The notes under the pieces are model-generated. The model saw only the letters and a list, made by a program, of their open reading frames with translations. It was not told the origin of the DNA and made no database searches. From the NCBI GenBank assembly GCA_048940925.1, contig JBHLOC010000001.1, positions 1 through 64,000 on the forward strand: a stretch of DNA of 64,000 bases. Reading direction: 5' to 3'. The DNA is from Promethearchaeota archaeon. GTDB lineage: Archaea > Asgardarchaeota > Lokiarchaeia > Sigyniarchaeales > SOKP01. Made by a program: the position numbers and the translations under genes. This document shows, one piece after another, positions 35,462 through 48,055 of this stretch; positions within the stretch are counted from its first letter, which is position 1, and every line of letters begins with the position of its first letter.

Positions 35462-36895
35462 GTGTGTAAAATTAAATTACCAATTACTGCAGTAATGCTT
35501 GGGGCTGGGAGAAGAGGGCTTCAAGTATATGGAGAGTATGCTTTAAAAAATAAAAAAAAATTAAAATTTATTGCTGTTGCCGAACCTATTAAAACAAGAT
35601 GTCAAAAATTCGCTGAACAACACAAGATTCCTTCAAATCGGTGCTATAAAAGTTGGGAAGATTTACTTCAAGAAGAAAGATTTGCAGATGTAGCATTTGT
35701 TTGCACACAAGATCAAATGCATACAAAACCAACCTTATTAGCCTTAGAAAAAGGGTATCATGTGCTTTTGGAAAAACCTATGGCTCATAGATTAGAAGAT
35801 TGTATAAAAATTGTGAAAAAAGTAGAAGAAACAGGAAGAATCTTAGGTGTAAGTCATGTTTTAAGATATACTGGTTTTTTTTCAACTATATATGAAATAA
35901 TAAGGAGAGGATTATTAGGAGATATAGTTAATATTTCTCATAGAGAAAATATAATGTGGTATCATTATGCTCATAGTTTTATCAGAGGACCATGGTCAAA
36001 TGTTGAAAAATCTTCTCCAATGATATTAGCAAAATGTTGTCATGATCTTGATTTACTTTTTCATTTAGTAGGGTCACTTCCAAAGAAAATTAGTTCTTTT
36101 GGAAGTTTATTGCATTTTAAACCTGAAAATGCTCCAAAAGGAGCTCCAAAATATTGTTTAGATGGATGCGCTGCTAAAGATGAATGCCTCTATTACGCTC
36201 CAAGAACATATATTGATATTATCCCAATTATCCAAATGTTGGAAAAAAGTGATAATACGTTTCTAAAGTTATTAGGAAAGTTAAGAAAGAACTATGTGAA
36301 TTTCTTCACATTTTTGTCAAAAATAATAAAACCACTTAAAGAATTACGACACTATCGAGATTTTCCAATTTATTATTTATATCGTGGTCAAAAAGAAGAT
36401 TATAGCGATAAGGCTAAGCTTGAGATTCTGAAAAATAGCCAATATGGAAAATGTGTATATCATTGCGATAATGATGTAGTAGATCATCAAGTGGTTAATA
36501 TTGAATTTGAAAACGGAGTTACGGCTAATTTAACTATGCATGGTTTCAGTGAACAAGAAGGTCGAACTTTAAGAATTGATGGAACAAAGGCAACATTAAT
36601 AGGTGAATTTCATATAAGTGGTGAGAGGATTATTCTCTATGATCATTTTACTGGGACAGAAAAGCTTGTCTTTAAAAAAAAAATGACACGTGAATCCGGT
36701 GAGCATGGTGTAGGAGATTTTGAACTAGTAGATGCCTACATTACATCACTCATTAATAAAAGAAAAACTCAACCGTTAACAAGTGCACAGGAGACACTCG
36801 AAAGTCACTTAATGGCTTTTGCTGCCAATGAATCACGTTTAAAAGGAATTGTGGTTGATATGGAAAAATTTCGTGAAAGAGCTGTACAAATCTGA
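35462..36895 (+). CDS. Gfo/Idh/MocA family oxidoreductase
   Basis: GAGRRG, LLEKP and KCCHDLD motifs. Confidence 0.9.
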   Translation: MCKIKLPITAVMLGAGRRGLQVYGEYALKNKKKLKFIAVAEPIKTRCQKFAEQHKIPSNRCYKSWEDLLQEERFADVAFVCTQDQMHTKPTLLALEKGYHVLLEKPMAHRLEDCIKIVKKVEETGRILGVSHVLRYTGFFSTIYEIIRRGLLGDIVNISHRENIMWYHYAHSFIRGPWSNVEKSSPMILAKCCHDLDLLFHLVGSLPKKISSFGSLLHFKPENAPKGAPKYCLDGCAAKDECLYYAPRTYIDIIPIIQMLEKSDNTFLKLLGKLRKNYVNFFTFLSKIIKPLKELRHYRDFPIYYLYRGQKEDYSDKAKLEILKNSQYGKCVYHCDNDVVDHQVVNIEFENGVTANLTMHGFSEQEGRTLRIDGTKATLIGEFHISGERIILYDHFTGTEKLVFKKKMTRESGEHGVGDFELVDAYITSLINKRKTQPLTSAQETLESHLMAFAANESRLKGIVVDMEKFRERAVQI

Positions 36896-37008
36896 ATGGG
36901 TCATCAATAATTACTTATATAAGAATGTAATAATTATAGTTAATTTATTATAATTAACAATATAAGATATTATATATTTAAATTCAAATTTTGGATTGAC
37001 AACATATA

Positions 37009-37239
37009 ATGGATAAGAAAATTGATACATCAGAACAGTTTATAGAGTTTTACAAAAAAAAGGGAGATTATTTGGTAACTCTTTCTGAAAATCATTTTAA
37101 GAATATAGAATATCGAAAGTGTCTTGAATTACTAAATCAGGCATATAGTATGTATATGAAAGGTAATTATACTGATTTAGCTAATAAAACAAAAGAAAGA
37201 TTCATGGAAATCAAAAAGAAATATTTTACTAACAAATAG
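37009..37239 (+). CDS. small helical (TPR-like) hypothetical protein
   Basis: YRKCLELLNQAYSMY helix-pair pattern. Confidence 0.6.
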   Translation: MDKKIDTSEQFIEFYKKKGDYLVTLSENHFKNIEYRKCLELLNQAYSMYMKGNYTDLANKTKERFMEIKKKYFTNK

Positions 37240-37247
37240 AACTGAGT

Positions 37248-37739
37248 TTAGGTACTGAAATTCTTTTCTAACTTGTCTTCGATATCTTCAATATGAGTCC
37301 CTTTCCAAAAGACCTTTTTACAATCTAAATTAGAGCACTGAAAGAACTCATTATAATGCTTGAAGGTATCTTCTAAAACAATATTTTTTACCAAATTTTT
37401 GTCTTTAATTTTAATTAAAAGTGAATTACACTTTGAACATCTTGCTCGTTCAATTTTAAAATCAAAGGTTAATCCTAACCTTCTTTTAAGTTGATTTAAG
37501 TAATTATATACTCCTTCTCCTTTCAGGTATAGACTTCTACTTCTATAAGAATTATAGAGAGGGTAATCCTTAGTTATAATAATCCGATCATCTTTTTGAG
37601 CAAATTCAATTAATTTTTCATCCGGAACAGGATCAATTTTAAAACTTTTAATTAAATCGTTAGCATATATAGTATCGTAACCAAAAATTCTAAGGAAACG
37701 TGCTAGTTTTCCTAGCATTGCATCTACTAAGAATTTCAT
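37248..37739 (-). CDS. Mut7-C RNase (PIN) domain protein
   Basis: KFLVDAMLGKLARFLRIFGYDT, RCSKCN and C..C.KVFWKGTH motifs. Confidence 0.9.
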   Translation of the reverse strand: MKFLVDAMLGKLARFLRIFGYDTIYANDLIKSFKIDPVPDEKLIEFAQKDDRIIITKDYPLYNSYRSRSLYLKGEGVYNYLNQLKRRLGLTFDFKIERARCSKCNSLLIKIKDKNLVKNIVLEDTFKHYNEFFQCSNLDCKKVFWKGTHIEDIEDKLEKNFST

Positions 37740-37844
37740 ATTTAGAAGTTAACGCTCTTGTTAATTCCTATTATATTAAATATATTTAAAACATGTAATA
37801 AATTATATAATTGAAATTTAATCAAAAAAAAACTAAAATTATCT

Positions 37845-38372
37845 ATGGAAGCTAAAGATTTAATGGAAAAAGCAGTCAAATTTCATGGGCATATATGTCC
37901 AGGTTTAGCAATAGGAGTCCTAGCGGCAAAATATCTGCTAGAGAATGGGTTTAAATATTCTCCTAATGAAGAAATAGTGGCACTCGTTGAAAATGATAAT
38001 TGTAGTATTGATGCACTTCAAGTTTTATTAGGAACAACATATGGGAAAGGTAATCTTATACACCAAGATTATGGAAAACTAAATTATTATTTCTATAATA
38101 GAGAAACTAAAAAAGCGGTAAAATTAACTATCAAAAATAAGGATTTTGGAAATAAAAAATTATCTAAAATGGAGCGGGTTCAAAAAATTTTAAAATCAAA
38201 GCCTAAGGATATTTTTAATGTATACGAACTAGAATTTAATCCTCCTGGATTAGCAGAAATAGAGGAATCTATACCGTGTGATATATGTGGTGAACTTACT
38301 ATGAATAGCCGGCTTATGTTCTATGAAAATAGCACGATGTGCATTCCTTGTTATAGGGCTCGTAGAAAGTAA
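37845..38372 (+). CDS. FmdE/FwdE family protein
   Basis: FHGHICPGL, C..DA.Q...GTT.GKGN and a C-terminal CDICGE...CIPC. Confidence 0.9.
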   Translation: MEAKDLMEKAVKFHGHICPGLAIGVLAAKYLLENGFKYSPNEEIVALVENDNCSIDALQVLLGTTYGKGNLIHQDYGKLNYYFYNRETKKAVKLTIKNKDFGNKKLSKMERVQKILKSKPKDIFNVYELEFNPPGLAEIEESIPCDICGELTMNSRLMFYENSTMCIPCYRARRK

Positions 38373-38380
38373 TTTTTACT

Positions 38381-38843
38381 ATAAGTGCACCTATAACTTG
38401 TCGTTCAATTTTAATTCATTTGGTTCCATTTTTTAAAATTTTCATGAAATTTCACCCTACCAATTCTGAAAAATTTAGAACGGAGAAAAATCAAAAATGG
38501 GTCTGTTTTGATAAGATACCCTTAAGCATCGTACCAAAAATAAAAAAAATTGATGAAAACAATGAAAAAATCGTTATATAAAATGAATTATACAATGTTA
38601 CTATTTCAGGGACGATTTGATGCTGACATTAAAAAAGAGAGCATGAATTATATTTACAATAACATTAATTCTAAAAAAAAGTGGAAAATTTGGTTAGAAC
38701 ATAATGATCATTCAATATTAAATAACCCAGATCATAATCAAATAGTTTTAGAACTTGTAAAATTTAAAAAAAATTTGTCCTTAAATTATTTATTATTAAA
38801 TAAATTACTTAAAATATCAAGATTAGACATTTGTACTTTTTAA
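38381..38843 (+). pseudogene. 5'-truncated, frameshifted carboxylesterase (alpha/beta hydrolase) remnant
   Basis: ISAP...LVPFFKIF...DKIPL in one frame, shifting in the A8 run at 38542-38549 to LLFQGRFDADI...IYNNINS..K..IWLEHNDH. No GxSxG half is present. Confidence 0.65.
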
Positions 38844-38997
38844 AATCTAAATTATGAATAATATACTTTTTCTAAGAAGGATAGTTGAATATCTATACTT
38901 TATTTTTATTGTAAAAAAAGAGAGGAAATTAACGATATTAAAAAAAATCGTAATTAAACAATAATTTTAATTATTTTCTAACTAAGATGAATAACCT

Positions 38998-40230
38998 ATG
39001 ATTAAAAATATTGATAAGGGGAATACTTTATTGGTAAAAGGACCTGCTAGAATAACTGTTTTGGAGGGTAAAATAGACGTATTTAGTAAGATTTTTCTTC
39101 CCTTAAAAAAAAGAGATAGTCAAGTTGAATTTGATATTGAAGAGAAAAATGTAATGATAATTCAAAGTGCCCAAATCTTTCCTTTATATGCACAACAGAA
39201 TTCAAAATTAGAAATTTACACTAATGTTGAAGAAAATCTTAATATAGTAGAGGAAAATTCTGTTATTCCTGAATGGGCTGAAATTAAAGATGAAATTATC
39301 AAAAAGTTAAAAGAGGCACCTGATTCAAATTTAAAAATAATGGTATTAGGAATTAGTAGCGGAAAAACAACTCTTATTAAGTATTTAGCTAATAGTTTTA
39401 TAAAAGAGGGTCTAAAAGGAGGTTATCTTGATTCTGATCTTGGACAACAAATAATTTATCTTCCAACAACATTAAATATTGGTTCAATTAAGGACTATAT
39501 TATATCAAGTGAAGATGTCAATTCTGAAGAAACAGTTTTTATAGGAAACACTTTTCCAAAAGGAAATTATAAATTTATTGTTTCTCTTTCTTGTAAGAAA
39601 TTAATCGACAGATATTTTGAAAAAAATAAACATACTGATTTCGTCTTAATCGATACAGATGGTTGGATCAAAACTGAAGCAGGTATACTCTACAAAAATT
39701 TTTTCATAAAAACAGTTGATCCAGATATCCTGATCATATTTCATGATGATACAATTGAAGAACTAAAAGAAATAGAAAAGACAGCATCAAAATTAAGAAA
39801 AGATAGAAAAATCTACTTGATAAAGGAGATAAACAAATATTTTTATGATAAAAATAAAGAAGAGAGAAGATTCTTGAGACAAAGTCAATTTTCCAAAAAA
39901 TTTGAAGAGTTTAGAAAAATTTCAATTCCATTAGAAGATATAGAATTTATAAAAATGGATTATGATAAAGATAATGATACTTTGATTGAAAAGAAAATTG
40001 ATATTAATGAACTCATTAATCTTCCTTATCATTATGTTATAATAGGCTTATTTACAGAGAATTCTGAATTAATAGAAATAGGTCTTCTTTTTACTGTAAA
40101 TATTGAGAAAAACTACATATTACTTTACTCAAACTTGAGTTATAAACAACAAATTCAAGTGAAAAAAATTTCACTTGGGAGCCTGAGATTATCAATAAAA
40201 GGGAATCATCAAGGATATTTATATTTATGA
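38998..40230 (+). CDS. Clp1/Grc3-family polynucleotide 5'-OH kinase
   Basis: LLVKGPA, SGKTT, DSDLGQ, IDTDGWI and EERRFLR motifs. Confidence 0.85.
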   Translation: MIKNIDKGNTLLVKGPARITVLEGKIDVFSKIFLPLKKRDSQVEFDIEEKNVMIIQSAQIFPLYAQQNSKLEIYTNVEENLNIVEENSVIPEWAEIKDEIIKKLKEAPDSNLKIMVLGISSGKTTLIKYLANSFIKEGLKGGYLDSDLGQQIIYLPTTLNIGSIKDYIISSEDVNSEETVFIGNTFPKGNYKFIVSLSCKKLIDRYFEKNKHTDFVLIDTDGWIKTEAGILYKNFFIKTVDPDILIIFHDDTIEELKEIEKTASKLRKDRKIYLIKEINKYFYDKNKEERRFLRQSQFSKKFEEFRKISIPLEDIEFIKMDYDKDNDTLIEKKIDINELINLPYHYVIIGLFTENSELIEIGLLFTVNIEKNYILLYSNLSYKQQIQVKKISLGSLRLSIKGNHQGYLYL

Positions 40231-40389
40231 TCATATCTTTAAAGACTTGAGAAAATTAAACAATTCAAATTTTTCTATTTTATTAATACATAAAGAAAGA
40301 GACTTTTTTTAGTAATGAGTAAAAAAATATAAAAAAAGATTGAATTAAAATTAATATAACATAAGTATATTGTCTTTTATTGATTTTTA

Positions 40390-41829
40390 ATGGAAGAAAA
40401 TTTGCTAAATAAATTTCTTAAGCTAATGTCTACTAGTATATCAGATTCTGATCTAGATCTAGTACAATTAGGACATTCATTAGGACTTAATTTAGTATCA
40501 TTTGCGGAATTAAGGGCTTCACAAGAAAATTCATTTATTGATTTGGTGAGAAGGAGAGCTTTAGAGAAAATGAAGAAAGATAATGATAATTTTCTTATCA
40601 ATAACGATTCTTTTTATGTTGGTAGTATCGATTTTATGGTTTCTGATGAACCAGATGGTAAAAGGTTTTTCTTATTAGAAACAAATGGAGGATCTCATCG
40701 GGGACTTTCCATAATCTCAAAAAAACAACAAGAACTATTATTTAATGGATATCTTGAAGCAATTAATCATGCAATTAGATTAAATAACCATGACATTGAT
40801 AAGGTATTTATATTAGTTGGGGTGCCTGTCAATGATGCATTAATTCACGAAAAAGTTATTATGATTGAATACTTTAGAAAAGCTTTAAAATCAAAATTTT
40901 ATTCAGTTAAAATTTTTAATACAGGAAACTATGATAAAGAATTTAAAGCTGATATTGTCTTTTTAATTGCTGATTATAAACAGCTTTCTAATAATCTCTC
41001 ATTTTCTAATAATTGGGTTAAATATAAGGGTGAAGAAGTAAGTGTTTTAATAGGGGATGGAATTGCTAGACGTTTTAATGATGAGAAATTCATAACACAA
41101 ATTAAAGAAAATTACCATCAAATTAACACTATTATTGTCAATCCCATATATAGAATCACCGATGATAAATCTTTAACATACTTGGCTAGTTATTTCTGTA
41201 AAGATATTTTAGAAAAATATAACCTTAGATACCTTCTATTCACTAAAGCATTTAGTGAAGCAGATTTACTAGAAAAGCTACAATATTTATTAAAAAAGTA
41301 TAGAAAATCATTTGTTATTAAACCTAGTGGAGGTTCAGGGGGTGCAGGAATAATTCCAGTATCTAGAGATGAAGATTCTGCAAGTATTAAAAACATAATT
41401 GAAGAGAGCAAGAAAGAATTTTTTGCAAAGTTTATGAAAAACCGTAATCCTTTTCCCTATACTATTCAAGAAAAGGCAAATTTTTCATTGATTGATTGGC
41501 AGAATAAAAAACATACTTTTGATTTAAGAATATATTTAACTCAACGAAATAATATGATAATCCCCATAGGGGGATTAGCTAGAATTGCACGTGGAAATTA
41601 TATTAATGGTTTAAAGAAACAGGAATTTGTAGTAAATTTATCTGGGTATAATGGTCAAATCGAAGTTAAGAGAGGAATTGGGTTCTCAGAAAAAAATTGT
41701 AAAGTATTAAATTTGATTAATGATGATTTAGTAAACATGTTTTGTATTGGTTGTGTATTGTTTGCTTATATGGTAAGAAATTACGAAAAAATTATAAATT
41801 TCTCTGATTGGAATACAATTGTTGATTAA
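40390..41829 (+). CDS. circularly permuted ATP-grasp amide/peptide ligase
   Basis: N-terminal GSIDFM...LLETNG (metal-binding ExN) precedes VIKPSGGSGGAGI, IQEK, FDLRIY, GGLARIA and VVNLS. Confidence 0.8.
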   Translation: MEENLLNKFLKLMSTSISDSDLDLVQLGHSLGLNLVSFAELRASQENSFIDLVRRRALEKMKKDNDNFLINNDSFYVGSIDFMVSDEPDGKRFFLLETNGGSHRGLSIISKKQQELLFNGYLEAINHAIRLNNHDIDKVFILVGVPVNDALIHEKVIMIEYFRKALKSKFYSVKIFNTGNYDKEFKADIVFLIADYKQLSNNLSFSNNWVKYKGEEVSVLIGDGIARRFNDEKFITQIKENYHQINTIIVNPIYRITDDKSLTYLASYFCKDILEKYNLRYLLFTKAFSEADLLEKLQYLLKKYRKSFVIKPSGGSGGAGIIPVSRDEDSASIKNIIEESKKEFFAKFMKNRNPFPYTIQEKANFSLIDWQNKKHTFDLRIYLTQRNNMIIPIGGLARIARGNYINGLKKQEFVVNLSGYNGQIEVKRGIGFSEKNCKVLNLINDDLVNMFCIGCVLFAYMVRNYEKIINFSDWNTIVD

Positions 41830-41832
41830 ACT

Positions 41833-42999
41833 TTGGTGAGCTTAGAAACTTTAAAAGAATTATTAGATCTGCAAAATAGATACAAATTATACGAAAAAAT
41901 CTTAAATAAATTTAAGGAATTTAGTAAATTAGATGATTTAAGTTATTTAGAATTTGAGATCTCTGAAGGAAAAGTTCCAATTATTATTATCTCAAAAAAT
42001 TCGAATTTAAATAAAGTTAAGTTTGTAAAGGTGTTTGTGGGTGCACAACATAATGAATACAATGGATTATTTGGGATTTTGGAATTTCTTAATATGATTG
42101 AAACATCAAAGATTTCTATAAATGATATTATATTAAATTTTCAGATTCTAATTTTTGCTCCATTAATGAATCCCTATGGATTCTTATATCCTTCAAAAGA
42201 TAATAAATCAGGATATTATTTAGAAAATGGTAGAAATCTGAATCGTTTTTGGAGGAAAACTTTTGTCCCGGAATATAGTAAAGGAAAAAATGATATAAAT
42301 CAATTAGATATTCCAGAACATGCAAAAATCATAAAAAGCTTATTGGAAAAATACTGGAAAAATGAAGATATATCAATATATATACTTGATTTTCATGAAA
42401 CTTCTCTTCTTAAAAGATCTTCGATAGACTTGATTGAAAATCTAAAAATAGATTCAGTTACATACAAATTTTCACATTGGCTTAAGGAAGCTATAGTCTA
42501 TAACATTATTAAACTCTACAATATAGCTTATTATAAGAAACCTTTATTTTTTAAATGTAACCCTAATTCTAATCATACTCATATAAATTTATCAGTTAAA
42601 CAGTTAGATAAAGTATATGAACGATTGAAAGAGTATATATCTAGAAATTATAATAAACTATCATTCTACTTTTGTTATAGCAAAAAGAGCAAGGAATATT
42701 GTATGAAGCTTGCTCAAAACGTTTATAAAAAGTTAAAAGATTCATTATGGGAAACCTGTTTTCCAGCATTTAGTCATCACTTTCAAGACCATGGATGTCT
42801 AGTAAATATGAATGATGCTACAAACCGAAAAAGTATATTTTCCATGGAATTAGAGTCTGAAAAACAGTTTTTTGACATTTTCAAGGAAATTGAGAAATGT
42901 AAAAAAGATATAAATTATTTTAATGAGAAACTTAAAAAAATTAATGCAAGTATTACATTGGTTATCGAATCAATAAACGAAATGATCAAGCTTTTTTAA
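41833..42999 (+). CDS. M14-like zinc carboxypeptidase/deacylase
   Basis: GAQHNE, PLMNPYG, GRNLNRFW, LDFHE and SMELE motifs. Confidence 0.75.
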   Translation: MVSLETLKELLDLQNRYKLYEKILNKFKEFSKLDDLSYLEFEISEGKVPIIIISKNSNLNKVKFVKVFVGAQHNEYNGLFGILEFLNMIETSKISINDIILNFQILIFAPLMNPYGFLYPSKDNKSGYYLENGRNLNRFWRKTFVPEYSKGKNDINQLDIPEHAKIIKSLLEKYWKNEDISIYILDFHETSLLKRSSIDLIENLKIDSVTYKFSHWLKEAIVYNIIKLYNIAYYKKPLFFKCNPNSNHTHINLSVKQLDKVYERLKEYISRNYNKLSFYFCYSKKSKEYCMKLAQNVYKKLKDSLWETCFPAFSHHFQDHGCLVNMNDATNRKSIFSMELESEKQFFDIFKEIEKCKKDINYFNEKLKKINASITLVIESINEMIKLF

Positions 43000-43068
43000 T
43001 TCTAATATTCCAGAACTAAAGTTTATTCTTTAATTAATGGATTCTATTAATTTTAATATATTAGAACT

Positions 43069-43212
43069 TTATTTAGTTAAACAGTTAATGTGGTAATAAA
43101 AAGTTTCTTTACCAATAGATTTTCTAAAGTTAAGGTCTCTTAATGTGAACTGAAATGCATATTTTAAACTTACTTTTTCAATTTCTTTACCACAGATTTT
43201 ACATTTATATAT
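43069..43212 (-). CDS. 47-aa CxxC...HxxC (PARP-type-like) zinc-finger protein, not in the ORF track
   Basis: (M)YKCKICGKEIEK...FYYHINCLTK*. The only candidate start is ATA immediately after an in-frame TAA. Confidence 0.55.
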   Translation of the reverse strand: MYKCKICGKEIEKVSLKYAFQFTLRDLNFRKSIGKETFYYHINCLTK

Positions 43213-43313
43213 TTAAATTTCAGAAACTCTATATAATATGGATTTTTTAAGTTATTTTAAAAGGGTTCTATTTAAACTCCACAATTAAAGTTGAGTATTC
43301 ATTGATTTATCAA

Positions 43314-44312
43314 TTATGAATTAAAGAAGCTAAGCGTAGCACCTACTAATGAGCTTTCATTTTTCTTGTGAGAGTGCCCTCCTTTTCTCAAGATGATTAG
43401 ATTTTTTTCAGGAGTCTCTAGAAGTATTCTATTTTCTTCAAAATTTTTGAACTTTATAATTTTATCATTTTTACAATGAACCAACATTACTCTTCTTGAT
43501 AATTTTTTCCATTCTTCTTCAGTAAGGTCTTTTTTAGCATTCTTGATTACTAAGTATGGAGATAATTTCTCGTTTTCTTCCTTATTTGGGAATAATTTTA
43601 CATGTTTTAGGAAATAACTTAACATTACTACAGGATTATATTTTGGAATATTTTGTTTGTAATAAGACATTGATGAGATAGCAATAATTTTTTTAATTTT
43701 ATGGTTTAAAAAACCTCCACATAAAGTAGTTATTGCTCCAATACTAAAACCAATACTAAAGATTTTGAATTTAGAGAATTCCTTTTCTAGATTTATCCAC
43801 TCAATTACTTTCTTAAAATCTTCTATTCGATTTAAAAAATCACTTCTTTTCCCTAATCTTTTAGACTTTCCTGTTCCTCTAGCATCATACGTCAAAACAA
43901 CATATCCTTGGTAAGCTAATGGAAAGCAATAATACTGTAGTGATTCTTTTGTATCAGAGAATCCATGACAAATTACTATTATTGAGTTTTTTAATTTAAC
44001 TTTTGCTGAATTTCGATTTTTAATAATATTTGCTGTCAAAGTTCCATCCTTTAAATCAATTTTTACTTCAGAAACTTCAATCTCCTTAGAGCTGAGGTTA
44101 ATCCAACGATCAAACCAGAGATCTCGAAATGACCAATAAATTTCAAAGGGAGTATAAATTATTAAAAATGTAGTTGTTGATAAAATAAAACATTCAGAAA
44201 AAGCTGTAGAATAACATGGATTTCCTAAAGAAACATTTATTTGCCAAATAAATAAACTAAATAAAACATCAAAGAAGGCTAATATTATGCGTTTTTTAGT
44301 ATTTGAGAGCAA
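43314..44312 (-). CDS. alpha/beta hydrolase with N-terminal membrane anchors
   Basis: CHGFS, YDARGTGKS, GFSIG nucleophile elbow and GGHSH. Confidence 0.85.
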   Translation of the reverse strand: MLSNTKKRIILAFFDVLFSLFIWQINVSLGNPCYSTAFSECFILSTTTFLIIYTPFEIYWSFRDLWFDRWINLSSKEIEVSEVKIDLKDGTLTANIIKNRNSAKVKLKNSIIVICHGFSDTKESLQYYCFPLAYQGYVVLTYDARGTGKSKRLGKRSDFLNRIEDFKKVIEWINLEKEFSKFKIFSIGFSIGAITTLCGGFLNHKIKKIIAISSMSYYKQNIPKYNPVVMLSYFLKHVKLFPNKEENEKLSPYLVIKNAKKDLTEEEWKKLSRRVMLVHCKNDKIIKFKNFEENRILLETPEKNLIILRKGGHSHKKNESSLVGATLSFFNS

Positions 44313-44479
44313 CTTATTTTCCTATAAGATTATAATCTGAAGAAATCTATGTCAATAAATGCCAAATGTATAAAATTGGAACAGATATAAAAACATTTAG
44401 ATTAAATAATTAGAATAAAACCTTTTAAGTCTATTTCTTTAATTCTTAACCTGTTTTAGAGATAATACATAGTTTATTT

Positions 44480-44800
44480 TTATTTTTTAGCTTTATCAGG
44501 AGGACAACCAAAATCATCTCTAACTTTACAATCTCGCTTACTTGAGCTACCTGGACAAGGAGCGCATTTGGTTTTTCTTAATAATGCTTCAACTTCATCA
44601 ATTTCATAACCAAATGATTCATCCTCAGTTTCATTAACAAGCATATCATCTTGAATTTTATCTAAATCATACTCAACATCTTCTTCTAGGTTATCTTTCC
44701 AATCATCTAAATCTAAAACCTCATCTCCATCCTCATCTACTTTTCCGGAAGGGATTTCTAAATCATCTTCTTCAACAGGAGCACTCTTTTTTTTAGCCAT
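44480..44800 (-). CDS. highly acidic small protein with a C-terminal 4-Cys cluster
   Basis: Start taken at MAKKKS (ATG 44800). D/E-rich body followed by CAPC...C...C. Confidence 0.65.
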   Translation of the reverse strand: MAKKKSAPVEEDDLEIPSGKVDEDGDEVLDLDDWKDNLEEDVEYDLDKIQDDMLVNETEDESFGYEIDEVEALLRKTKCAPCPGSSSKRDCKVRDDFGCPPDKAKK

Positions 44801-44956
44801 GGGTTTCACATATATTGAACATATAATTTTACAATTGAAAGTTTTTAATATATAATATTTCCTAAAATTTAATTCTAATATATTTAAGGAAAGAAAAGTC
44901 AAAATTCATCTGAGTCATCCAACCTTAAATTTTTAAAAATAATTGAGATAAATCTC

Positions 44957-47026
44957 TTATGATAAATTAATATTATTGATCTCGTCAATTTGATACAAAA
45001 GAGATTTATTTTCGTGTATCATGTTTAGAAAATTCTTAACTCCATTTAAAATGTAGTCTAACTCTTCTAATGAATATGTGAAATACTTATTTATATTGTA
45101 TCGAGGCAGGAGGTATTTAAATTGAATACTTTTCAGGTTTAGTTCTGAGTATAATAATTCTCTTATTTCATTGAAATTCAGATTAGATTCTAAATAAAAA
45201 TCATCTAAATATAGTAAGTTTACTAAGCCGTTACTTATTTTTTTAAAAAATCTAATAAATCTAAATATTTCCGACTGATATTTTTCTTTTAAAAATTTTA
45301 GTTCTGATATTTCATTAGTATATTCAGAATTTAGATCATAATGTAATTGAGATAAAATTTGAAGTATTTTTCCGCAGTTTGATAAGGATGAGGGAAAATT
45401 TTGCGGTGCTGGTAGCCTTTTTATAAAACTCCCATTGAATCTTAAATAGCCTCCAGCCATATGAAGTGAACTAAACAATGTCTTAAATACTGTATCTAAT
45501 AATTTAGAGTTTAATATTGTTAGAAAACAATAAAGCTTCTTAGTGTTTATTGAAGGAATTTTAACGAAATATAAGCCAGTTATATTGGTAAAAATACCGG
45601 GGTCATACACACAGGTTAAATTTTTAGCAATTTCTCTAAAAATAATTTTTTCACTATTTAGATCTTGCCATATATGCTCAAAAGTAGGTTTATAATTAAA
45701 ATATGAAATTTCGAAATCTTTCTTGGCGATCTTTATTCTTTTATTATATTTAATATAATATTTCTCTACGTTTCCAGTCCCTATCAACAAGAGATCCTTC
45801 TCAGATCTGGGTTCTTTACTGACATTATCAAAATGCTTACTGTATTTTAAAAATCCAAAGGGTCGATAGATAATTTTTAAAGCCTTAAATGAATCTTTAA
45901 TTGATTTGTACTTATTATACAGAAATTTTATTAAATTGATATTGCCTGAAACAGGAATAACATTAGAAGGGAGACCTGTGATTAATTTCTGAGGAAATTT
46001 TATTATATTTAAACTATTATAGGTCAGAAGATCATCAAGATCATTAAATTTTGATATTGTAATCTCATTTTTATCATCATATTTACCTTTTTTAAAATAG
46101 AGAATTATTGGATAAGTTGCTGCTTTTTGAAATATATATAAAGAAGATATATTTACAATTTCCCTAATTTCAGTGTTCTTAATTAAAAGTTCTCGGATTT
46201 TAATTCCGAAATCAGCAGATAAAAATTTATTAGGTAAAATAAATGAAAGATAGCCATTTTCTTTCAATAATTCAATGGATTTTTCAATAAATACAATAGA
46301 AAGATCAAATAATTTATATGCAGATTTGAAATTTTCATATAATTTTCTTTTATACTCAAAATCTTTTATCTTCTTATTTTCAACATAAGGAGGATTTCCG
46401 AGGATTATATCAAACTTTTTAAATTCAAAGTCTAAAAGAAAATCTAAGTGATATATGTTAAGATTAATTTCATTTTTATTAATTATTAGATTAACTTTTT
46501 CTAGGCTTAAGCCTTTTTGATTGAAATTATGAAAGTTATATTTTTTCTCATTTCCAGAAAAAAGCCAAGAAAACAATCGTAATTTTGTGATAATATAAGC
46601 AGATTTGTCAATATCAATGCCATAAATATTATTTTGTATTATTTTTCTTTTTGTTTCATAGTTATTTAATCCAGTTTTTATAATTTTCCAAAATTGATAA
46701 AGTGTTTCAGCAGTAGATATAATAAATCTTCCAGAACCACATGCAGGGTCCAATATCTTAATATTTCTTAGTTTTTCAATAAAATTCTTTTTAAATTTAT
46801 CATTTTTAGATGATCTTTGCTTAATATAATAATAAAAAGAACCTAAATTAGAACAATCTGGAAAATTGAAATATTCTTTGAAGTATATTTTAAAAATATT
46901 AAAAACTATATTATCCACTACAGGTTTTGGTGTATAAATTATTCCAATGTTCCTATTATTAGTTGCTTTATTTTCAAAATCTATGATAACCTTCTTTATG
47001 TAAGTAAAAAAATCTTGAGCCGGCAA
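44957..47026 (-). CDS. N6-adenine DNA methyltransferase (Eco57I/TaqI-like gamma class)
   Basis: YTP, LDPACGSG, GNPPY and a TaqI_C-like LNSKL...GGYLRF region. Confidence 0.88.
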   Translation of the reverse strand: MPAQDFFTYIKKVIIDFENKATNNRNIGIIYTPKPVVDNIVFNIFKIYFKEYFNFPDCSNLGSFYYYIKQRSSKNDKFKKNFIEKLRNIKILDPACGSGRFIISTAETLYQFWKIIKTGLNNYETKRKIIQNNIYGIDIDKSAYIITKLRLFSWLFSGNEKKYNFHNFNQKGLSLEKVNLIINKNEINLNIYHLDFLLDFEFKKFDIILGNPPYVENKKIKDFEYKRKLYENFKSAYKLFDLSIVFIEKSIELLKENGYLSFILPNKFLSADFGIKIRELLIKNTEIREIVNISSLYIFQKAATYPIILYFKKGKYDDKNEITISKFNDLDDLLTYNSLNIIKFPQKLITGLPSNVIPVSGNINLIKFLYNKYKSIKDSFKALKIIYRPFGFLKYSKHFDNVSKEPRSEKDLLLIGTGNVEKYYIKYNKRIKIAKKDFEISYFNYKPTFEHIWQDLNSEKIIFREIAKNLTCVYDPGIFTNITGLYFVKIPSINTKKLYCFLTILNSKLLDTVFKTLFSSLHMAGGYLRFNGSFIKRLPAPQNFPSSLSNCGKILQILSQLHYDLNSEYTNEISELKFLKEKYQSEIFRFIRFFKKISNGLVNLLYLDDFYLESNLNFNEIRELLYSELNLKSIQFKYLLPRYNINKYFTYSLEELDYILNGVKNFLNMIHENKSLLYQIDEINNINLS

Positions 47027-47155
47027 TTTTATTATTGGGAATTAAATTTTCTATTAATTTTGTTTTTATTTTAAATTTCCTTACTAATAAAAATTATAGA
47101 AACAATATTAAAAATAAGAAAAAAATATGATATCGAATTTGTACTAAGATAAATT

Positions 47156-48055
47156 TTGTTTGAATATAAAGATTTAAAGGATATGATTAAAAATCCACAG
47201 TTGTTTTCTAAATTAGAATTTAATGTTATTTCCAAAATTCTGTCAGAAGCTAAAAAAGTATTTGAAAATGAAAATATAATGTTAGAATTTAATTTAGATA
47301 ATGAAGATAAGAAAGTTTATGTAATTGGAGATATTCATGGAAATTTGGAGACATTAGTGAAATTAATTGAATTAATAGAGGAACAAAATCCAGAACTGGT
47401 TATATTTCTGGGAGATATCGTTGATCGAGGACTTAAACAGCTAGAATGTTTATTGATTGTATTAACTTTAAAAATTCTTAATCCTCAGAAATTTTATCTA
47501 CTTAGAGGAAATCATGAGACTCTCGAAATGAATAAATATTATGGCTTTTTTCAGGATTTTATGCATAAGTTCAAAGATTCTATAAAATTCAATGAAATCT
47601 TAACAGTTTATGATGTACTCCCTATATGCGTGTTAATTAATAGGACCATTTTATGTCTACATGGAGGGATCCCTCAAGATACTGAAATTCTTACAAAGTT
47701 AAAAGGTTATAAAACTAAAGATATGACAAGAATATATAAATCAATCTCTAAAGGTGTTTTTCAAATTATGTGGAATGATCCTAAATCAGAATTACAAGGT
47801 TTTGTTAACAGTTTTCGAGGTTCGGGGATTTTCTTTTTTGGCGAAGAAGTTTTTAATGATTTCATGAGGATTAACAATCTAGAATATCTTATTAGAGCAC
47901 ATGAATGTTTTCCAGAGGGATATCGTTGGTTTTTCAATAAAAAATTATTATCAATATTTTCTTCAGCAAATTATAGAGGATCTTATTCACCAAATCCAGC
48001 ATCATATGCAATCATAAGAAACAATGAAATATTTCCAAAAATATTATATTTATAA
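47156..48055 (+). CDS. PPP-family Ser/Thr protein phosphatase
   Basis: GDIHG, GDIVDRG, RGNHE, HGG, RAHE and FSSANY motifs. Confidence 0.92.
   Translation: MFEYKDLKDMIKNPQLFSKLEFNVISKILSEAKKVFENENIMLEFNLDNEDKKVYVIGDIHGNLETLVKLIELIEEQNPELVIFLGDIVDRGLKQLECLLIVLTLKILNPQKFYLLRGNHETLEMNKYYGFFQDFMHKFKDSIKFNEILTVYDVLPICVLINRTILCLHGGIPQDTEILTKLKGYKTKDMTRIYKSISKGVFQIMWNDPKSELQGFVNSFRGSGIFFFGEEVFNDFMRINNLEYLIRAHECFPEGYRWFFNKKLLSIFSSANYRGSYSPNPASYAIIRNNEIFPKILYL

Follow-up and report, generated by a model that had tools for sequence, protein, structure and literature searches.

A permuted ATP-grasp ligase and a divergent M14-fold hydrolase, encoded as a pair in Lokiarchaeia, may make and break an amide bond of a small metabolite

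Enzymes that attach and remove amino acids are described both for small molecules and for proteins. The AstE/AspA hydrolases are known for small N-acyl amino acid substrates, and both they and the M20/M14 hydrolases are frequent pathway deacylases, whereas in the TTLL/CCP system of tubulin an ATP-grasp writer is combined with an M14 (M14D) eraser. COG2308 proteins, which have a circularly permuted ATP-grasp fold, are predicted to tag proteins and typically have alpha-E, transglutaminase and Ntn peptidase genes as neighbours. Other permuted enzymes that have been both solved and characterised, namely glutathione synthetase (GS), GspS/TryS and the fungal Cp1B of the E-64 pathway, are ligases of a small carboxylate and an amine (for Cp1B, PMC12568646). 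Here, a ligase of the permuted class (P0001) and an M14-fold hydrolase (P0002) are described that are encoded side by side at 40390-42999 of contig JBHLOC010000001.1 of an Asgard (Promethearchaeota) archaeon; the window analysed comprises 64,000 nt, and coordinates count from its start. No publication describing this pair was found within the searchable papers. The reading favoured here, with a probability of about 45%, is that the pair makes and breaks a single amide bond in a small metabolite that is probably acidic or phosphorylated, the hydrolase being a dispensable turnover enzyme.

The ligase gene (40390..41829, forward strand) is an open reading frame (ORF) of 479 amino acids (aa). The hydrolase gene (41833..42999, forward strand; 388 aa) starts 3 nt past the ligase stop codon in the same orientation, and is translationally coupled to it. 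The first-pass annotation of this DNA had described two co-oriented genes 3 nt apart, and the ORF coordinates agree, with every motif that it quoted at its place. As the database copy of P0002 has 387 aa, a GTG at 41836 may be the true start. The G+C content at the pair is ~25-30%, uniform with the surrounding DNA.

In the Pfam search, P0001 gave a marginal ATPgrasp_YheCD match covering residues 281-402 only (27.1 bits against a cutoff of 26.8), and NCBIfam and PDB sequence/profile searches returned nothing significant or useful. Foldseek searches with the AF2 model (mean predicted local distance difference test score, pLDDT, 78.6; predicted template modelling score, pTM, 0.84) gave circularly permuted ATP-grasps as the top matches, the VIA and Atlas matches being in agreement. 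The list includes human, yeast, plant and nematode glutathione synthetases, 3k1t, 3n6x, GspS, YjfC/YgiC and Cp1B, and a shape search of the ESM Atlas returned PF08886 GshA, CP_ATPgrasp, eukaryotic GS and GSP_synth. When aligned structurally, permuted enzymes span residues 20-438 of P0001, whereas unpermuted enzymes span only 138-465.

The Mg-binding segment of P0001, GSID81FM...LLE97TN99 (translated from 40621..40686), is N-terminal, whereas ordinary ATP-grasps carry its counterpart at the C-terminus. Thus, D81...E97-x-N99 (residues 78-99) precede the ATP-binding K311 with its glycine-rich loop FVIKPSGGSGGAG (41311..41349, inside the YheCD match), the hinge motif IQEK of the adenine-binding region (41464..41475), and the FDLR380IY, GGLARIA and VVNLS strands of the catalytic core (41518..41643), all on the forward strand. 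D81/E97/N99, K311, E361 and R380 are the best-conserved columns among relatives down to 17% identity. D81, E97 and N99 are nearly invariant, as are K311, P312, G318 and, family-wide, R380, while G320 is invariant, as are, within the Loki family, Q360 and E361. The position of D81/E97/N99 and their top-ranking conservation make both the permutation and a working active site well supported. P0001 therefore has the motif set of an ATP-grasp (lysine and glycine-rich loop, hinge Q/E, arginine and D...ExN) and the fold, with the Mg-binding strand pair N-terminal to the remaining domain as in the permuted class, and motif order, model matches and conserved columns together sustain the earlier assignment of the ligase to that class.

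None of the named Pfam families of the class (PF03917/PF03199, PF03738, PF04174/PF14403 and PF08886, at E up to 0.1) matched P0001, which is hence considered to represent an unnamed family of it; one of 39 ligase relatives matches CP_ATPgrasp_2 at 0.0018. The homologues form 441 clusters at 90% identity and, among 1.84 billion representatives, only 75 at 50% identity. Eukaryote-type glutathione synthetases (2hgs/8fbz, 1m0w, 3kal and the nematode GSS-like 5oev) are ~10-14% identical to P0001, which does not match PF03917/PF03199 and has a glycine-rich loop of the ordinary KPxGGSGGxG type. The absence of GshB from archaea has been reported in a review (PMC7278568). As judged from sequence, P0001 may be a glutathione synthetase proper, the 'missing archaeal glutathione synthetase', and the genome encodes a GGT and two sub-threshold YbdK/GCS2-like proteins, which are weak candidates for the gamma-glutamylcysteine step. 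The Methylobacillus flagellatus protein 3k1t, which on the basis of an Atlas entry we take to belong to PF08886 'GshA', has no sequence-level match to P0001 and differs from it in length and N-terminal extension; to our knowledge, this family is bacterial and has no M14 partner. P0001 likewise differs from GspS/TryS, YgiC/YjfC and Cp1B, having no Pfam GSP_synth match, no fused CHAP amidase and other partners, and from COG2308/CP_ATPgrasp_1-2 (3n6x), as its partners are an M14/AstE-like hydrolase and an RtcB-like protein instead of alpha-E, transglutaminase and Anbu/Ntn.

The hydrolase P0002 has no Pfam (PF00246 and PF24827 included), NCBIfam or PDB sequence/profile match, though a precomputed PF00246 hit is carried by one orthologue (P0146). 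Its model has the carboxypeptidase A (CPA) fold, its Atlas feature neighbours are M14 clusters, and in Foldseek the M14A/B enzymes are the best matches, with the bacterial CCP-type structures 4a37, 4b6z, 3k2k and 3l2n ranking lower. The motifs on the forward strand are Q72-H73-N74-E75 (first zinc motif, 42046..42057), NPYG with NLN137R138FW (42169..42246), D186-F-H188-E189 (candidate third zinc ligand, 42388..42399) and E339-L-E341 (candidate general-base Glu, 42847..42855). Across 42 orthologues, there is little or no variation at H73, E75, N137/R138, H188 and E339: the first zinc motif has invariant Q72, N74 and E75 and an H73 conserved in at least 90%, and N113, P114, G116, N135, L136, N137, R138, W140, H188, E339 and E341 are likewise invariant. 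By motif, we take NPYG and N137/R138 to be the M14 NPxG turn and the equivalent of the CPA N144/R145 pair that holds the free carboxylate of the substrate, and E339, given its motif and its place on model strand E335-342, is a candidate counterpart of CPA Glu270.

P0002 can be set apart from each of the described M14-fold groups. Compared with M14A/B (CPA4 2bo9, CPA, CPB, CPD and CPT), its first zinc motif is HxE rather than HxxE, the model has extra N- and C-terminal helices and an insertion of ~60 residues after the third ligand and before the catalytic Glu, neither a signal peptide nor a pro-domain is present, and its scores are below every Pfam threshold. The N-terminal beta-sandwich of the CCPs is also absent, as the N-terminus consists of two helices and the alignment of the catalytic domain begins at model residue 1. 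With the AstE/AspA-type hydrolases that accompany the ligase in other organisms (see below), P0002 shares the AQH(G)NExNG motif, its NPYG/NLNRFW aligns with their NP..F/DMNR and its DFHE with their DLH, and homology is indicated by hhalign (Prob 94%, E 1.3e-7), though over the N-terminal 120-150 residues only. It differs from AstE/AspA in having no PF24827 match, no C-terminal barrel domain and a one-residue deletion in the zinc motif. No PF24827 match was found in a profile search of the genome. The same genome encodes a second M14-like protein (G000:C83:15844-16317; 470-aa ORF) with a canonical HPNE motif and a PF00246 match above threshold.

The shortened motif, HxE, is one residue shorter than the HxxE of both M14 and AstE/AspA, a spacing that was deduced from the gap placed by both MAFFT and hhalign relative to QHGNE of the partners. 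This deletion, the invariant Gln just before it, the absence of a Pfam M14 match, and the large insertion and extra terminal helices could all be accounted for if P0002 were a non-catalytic partner that binds or regulates the ligase or the ligase product. Such a pseudo-enzyme is improbable, since H73, E75, H188, E339 and N137/R138 are fully or nearly invariant over the 42 orthologues and kept in a 29%-identical copy from another lineage (L081), where Q72-H73-N74-E75 is also retained, as would be the case for a working site. The retention of catalytic residues at this distance argues for a P0002 site that is working, if unusual. Of the M14 features, P0002 has the fold and candidates for the third His ligand, the catalytic Glu and the N/R pair, and it lacks HxxE and a PF00246 score at threshold.

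The evidence that ligase and hydrolase belong together comes from independent contexts, in which the ligase is accompanied by an M14/AstE-AspA-type hydrolase (contigs L081, L082/83, L085 and P0257). In L081, from another Asgard-type metagenome-assembled genome (MAG), a 42%-identical ligase lies between EF-1alpha and S10, with a true P0002 orthologue (E 1e-43) behind it, then genes for Metallophos and HD proteins and for a protein of 402 aa that has no Pfam domain. Genes for a ubiquitin-like protein, E2 (UQ_con) and E1 (ThiF) are located at L081:1-2402, just upstream of S7-EF1A. A link between this Metallophos gene and the one in the window was considered and rejected, as they share only a generic 80-residue match. 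In other uncultured organisms, the ligase (33-38% identity) has as neighbours an AstE/AspA-type hydrolase (AstE_AspA_cat match, 8.7e-28) and a homologue of the ~400-aa protein, and one of these hosts has bacterial cell-wall genes as neighbours.

A metagenome scan yielded 28 non-Loki loci, in which the recurrence of families was tallied on ORFs of at least 80 aa. Only three families recur: the ligase is in all 28 loci, the AstE-like hydrolase in 22 and the ~400-aa protein in 15, while no other family exceeds 3 of 28. The three genes are shuffled in at least five orders. It is consequently highly improbable that ligase and hydrolase are unrelated neighbours held together by local synteny alone; although the whole surrounding block is syntenic in Loki genomes, the recurrence of the pair in unrelated contexts and shuffled orders already contradicts that view, and in a phylum-wide sample (below) the hydrolase is confined to the ligase-bearing family. 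No alpha-E, transglutaminase-like or Ntn (Anbu) peptidase gene was found by Pfam in the window neighbourhood or in the loci with the trio, so the remark in the first-pass annotation that these neighbours are missing is correct. Two metagenome loci (L157 and L158) carry two tandem permuted-ligase paralogues after one AstE-like gene, which suggests two successive ligations in some lineages. More distant relatives of the ligase adjoin genes for an Asp/Glu racemase, an MFS transporter, an Opp peptide permease with ornithine cyclodeaminase, and an epimerase, which is small-molecule company.

The third recurrent protein resembles RtcB. In the genome of the window, its gene (~415 aa; G000:C55:77043-78287, forward strand) is on another contig, adjoins MetRS and is unlinked to the ligase and hydrolase genes; a copy is also found at L092:9044-10291. 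The protein is 73-94% identical across Loki genomes and has no Pfam domains, PF01139 included. The motif pairs shared with RtcB are NHF/GNHF, IHGS/HTGS, THQ/AHN and PHGGGY/AHGAGR, together with a C-terminal YRG...LK, and the aligned positions are PNxC99G, N142-H143-F, H166-G-S, H250-Q and PH328GGGY. Support for the relationship is modest: hhalign gave E 4e-4 and Prob 35% over 244 columns, the NCBIfam RtcB match has E 0.0044, and the sole PDB matches are RtcB at E 1.5. The likeness reaches modest significance only with a diverse profile, and not with a narrow profile or a single template. The family is wider in Asgard archaea than the ligase and usually unlinked to it, and one genome has a distant ligase relative but no RtcB-like gene. 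Paralogues (L137, L138, L139 and L133) adjoin GDPD (twice), a two-domain Metallophos, GGT with an S9 peptidase, and a RimK-like ATP-grasp. The pair had been proposed as a minimal system, which does not hold, as relatives carry this third conserved gene, unlinked here. The best explanation is that an older module comprised three genes, that of the RtcB-like protein included, of which the Loki pair has remained linked.

Given this module, the three enzymes could form a pathway centred on the RtcB-like protein, which would join a phosphate-ended target (an RNA or nucleotide end, a phospho-metabolite or a cofactor tail), with the amino acid added and removed by the pair. The trio is the sole gene set recurring in the non-Loki loci, the third protein aligns with RtcB across its motifs, Metallophos and HD genes lie in the L081 cluster, a Clp1-like kinase gene is upstream in Loki loci, and the paralogues adjoin GDPD, Metallophos and GGT genes. 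Nevertheless, such a pathway is considered unlikely, since the RtcB relationship, read from sequence profiles, is statistically modest, the RtcB-like gene is more widespread than the ligase, usually unlinked to it and once missing beside a distant relative, and the Clp1 adjacency belongs to a large syntenic block.

Within Lokiarchaeia, members of both families are frequent in MAGs of Promethearchaeota and carry consecutive locus tags. Scanning species genomes gave 80 Loki-type loci, all from Promethearchaeota or archaeal MAGs, in which the ligase is 51-88% and the hydrolase 41-80% identical to the copies in the window. The hydrolase directly follows the ligase in 57 of the 80, with a gap of 3-30 nt; it is cleanly absent, with space available, from ~19, and short remnants are present in two further loci. 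On the ligase tree, these absences need at least eight independent losses, with the ligase retained throughout. MAGs titled Hod-, Thor-, Hermod- or Odinarchaeota (L006, L009, L012, L013, L024, L027, L033 and others) interleave with Promethearchaeota on this tree and carry the Loki synteny block, so their labels look unreliable.

In a sample of 81 genomes drawn evenly across the phylum (21 GTDB families), full-length ligase orthologues are found only in the GTDB family of the window (9 of 10 genomes), as is the Loki hydrolase (8 of 10), which adjoins the ligase wherever both are found. One genome (G077) has the hydrolase with no ligase found, and another, 100% complete (G071), has the ligase and no hydrolase anywhere. 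This distribution ties the hydrolase to ligase-bearing lineages and shows the ligase to be independent of the hydrolase. The suggestion that the pair might stay adjacent across Asgard genomes is thus not borne out, with full-length orthologues in one of the 21 sampled families and the hydrolase lost at least eight times.

The losses also bear on whether the two enzymes act in sequence. The ligase could act on one bond of the pathway and the hydrolase on another, deprotecting or releasing a precursor or an end product; LysK, which follows LysX, and AstE of arginine catabolism are examples of such hydrolases. The frequency of pathway deacylases among AstE/AspA and M20/M14 hydrolases is consistent with this, coupled translation suggests co-expression rather than antagonistic control, and the trio resembles a short linear pathway. 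This arrangement is rather unlikely, as a pathway step would hardly be lost at least eight times while the ligase is strongly conserved, and the complete genome G071 does without it.

Ligase and hydrolase are embedded in a block of 11 genes (~13 kb, window 35462-48055) in the order GFO-Mut7C-FmdE-orf97-Clp1-ligase-hydrolase-abH-orf140-MTase-Metallophos, which is syntenic in Loki genomes and kept in most of the 80 loci, a stability that is unusual for archaea. Pfam identified the neighbours of the pair as a Clp1-like kinase, an alpha/beta hydrolase, an acidic 140-aa ORF, a methyltransferase (MTase), an FmdE-like protein and a Mut7-C protein. The homologue of Clp1/Grc3-type P-loop polynucleotide kinases (38998-40230, forward strand) immediately precedes the ligase in 75 of the 80 loci, and this adjacency loosens in the most divergent clade (L076 and L077), while the coupling of ligase and hydrolase does not. 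The 159-nt, very AT-rich spacer between the two genes (40231..40389), from its sequence, is the presumed promoter region of the pair. The Eco57I/PglX-like N6-adenine methyltransferase (44957-47026, reverse strand; 689 aa; 60 of 80 loci) has no detected endonuclease domain; odd as a restriction/BREX-type gene, its place in the block suggests a housekeeping role. The D/E-rich, very acidic orf140 (44480-44902, reverse strand; 68 of 80 loci) has a C-terminal Cys cluster, CAPCPG...C...C, and no Pfam or NCBIfam match, and probably starts at MAKKK. An acidic C-terminal tail of the LysW/S6 kind is absent from orf76, orf97 and orf140, the conserved small ORFs of the block. A role in anti-phage defence was considered and rejected, as no PADLOC defence model matches the ligase, the hydrolase or the RtcB-like protein.

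The first-pass annotation had compared the pair with the tubulin code, proposing that amino acids such as Glu are reversibly added to a protein or cofactor. In reversible protein tagging, the ligase would add amino acids to a protein C-terminus or side chain and the carboxypeptidase would trim them, as for RimK/S6 or TTLL/CCP/tubulin. The M14 fold of P0002 retains the carboxylate-anchoring N137/R138, the permuted COG2308 relatives are predicted taggers, the L081 pair is inside an S7-EF1A...S10 translation cluster, and FDLRIY resembles the TTL motif, one of 39 ligase relatives matching Pfam TTL at 2.7e-5. Against this, P0001 lacks the unpermuted TTL domain PF03133 and, being permuted, groups with glutathione-synthetase-like enzymes, while P0002 lacks the CCP N-domain and best matches M14A/B. 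Although an FDLRxY-type strand is shared, the resemblance to TTLL/CCP is therefore one of logic only, and the supposed kinship is not upheld. Moreover, nearly all of the closest solved relatives of the ligase are small-molecule ligases, the three recurring families of the module (tallied on ORFs of at least 80 aa) include no conserved small or acidic-tailed protein, the eraser was lost at least eight times, and elsewhere the partner is of the AstE/AspA family. Protein tagging is hence thought unlikely. The broader proposal that the trio reversibly attaches amino acids to a macromolecule, whether a protein of translation or the cytoskeleton or a phosphate-bearing RNA end, as an undescribed code independent of TTLL/CCP, is doubtful.

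The small-molecule role, which had been put forward as an equal alternative, is better supported than a protein tag. A small amide metabolite is favoured because the solved relatives of the ligase act on small molecules, the partners elsewhere are of the AstE/AspA type, and distant relatives of the ligase have small-molecule company. By analogy with the permuted class, P0001 would be an active carboxylate-amine ligase that phosphorylates the carboxyl group of its substrate with ATP/Mg, after which the amino group of an amino acid would attack to give R-CO-NH-CH(R')-COO-. P0002, a predicted cytosolic zinc hydrolase of the M14 clan that would descend from the AstE/AspA-like partner found with the ligase elsewhere, would cleave the same type of bond and free the C-terminal amino acid. 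Folds, conserved catalytic residues, gene linkage and distribution are observed; from them we infer that both enzymes act on one bond, that a small metabolite of the peptide-like or N-acyl-amino-acid type, which may bear a phosphate, is the most likely substrate, and that the hydrolase has an accessory part in turnover or recycling. The idea of a writer and an eraser thus survives in part: recurrent pairing in independent contexts shows that the two belong together, while minimality, kinship with TTLL/CCP and Asgard-wide adjacency do not stand.

Several observations weigh against an opposing pair acting on a small metabolite. With HxE in place of HxxE, the metal binding of the hydrolase may be different or its activity lost. 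Adjacency within Lokiarchaeia is weak, non-independent evidence, because the whole 13-kb block is syntenic. The COG2308 relatives are predicted, not shown, to be protein taggers, and the location of the L081 ligase between EF-1alpha and S10, the Clp1-like kinase upstream and the RtcB-like partner hint at a target connected with RNA or translation. The two enzymes could also act sequentially on different bonds rather than oppose one another, and no transporter or other biosynthetic gene recurs in the three-gene modules of the 28 non-Loki loci.

Both proteins are well conserved in Loki loci and yet unnamed. If their product is a small amide metabolite, the pair points to an unfamiliar compound, similar to a thiol, osmolyte or cofactor, among the closest archaeal relatives of eukaryotes, and the ligase producing it shares a rare rearrangement of the fold with eukaryotic glutathione synthetase. 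With a macromolecular target, the pair would be a new reversible modification system. The HxE motif is a natural experiment on the tolerance of the M14 metal site, and the three-gene module suggests that the RtcB fold is employed outside RNA ligation.

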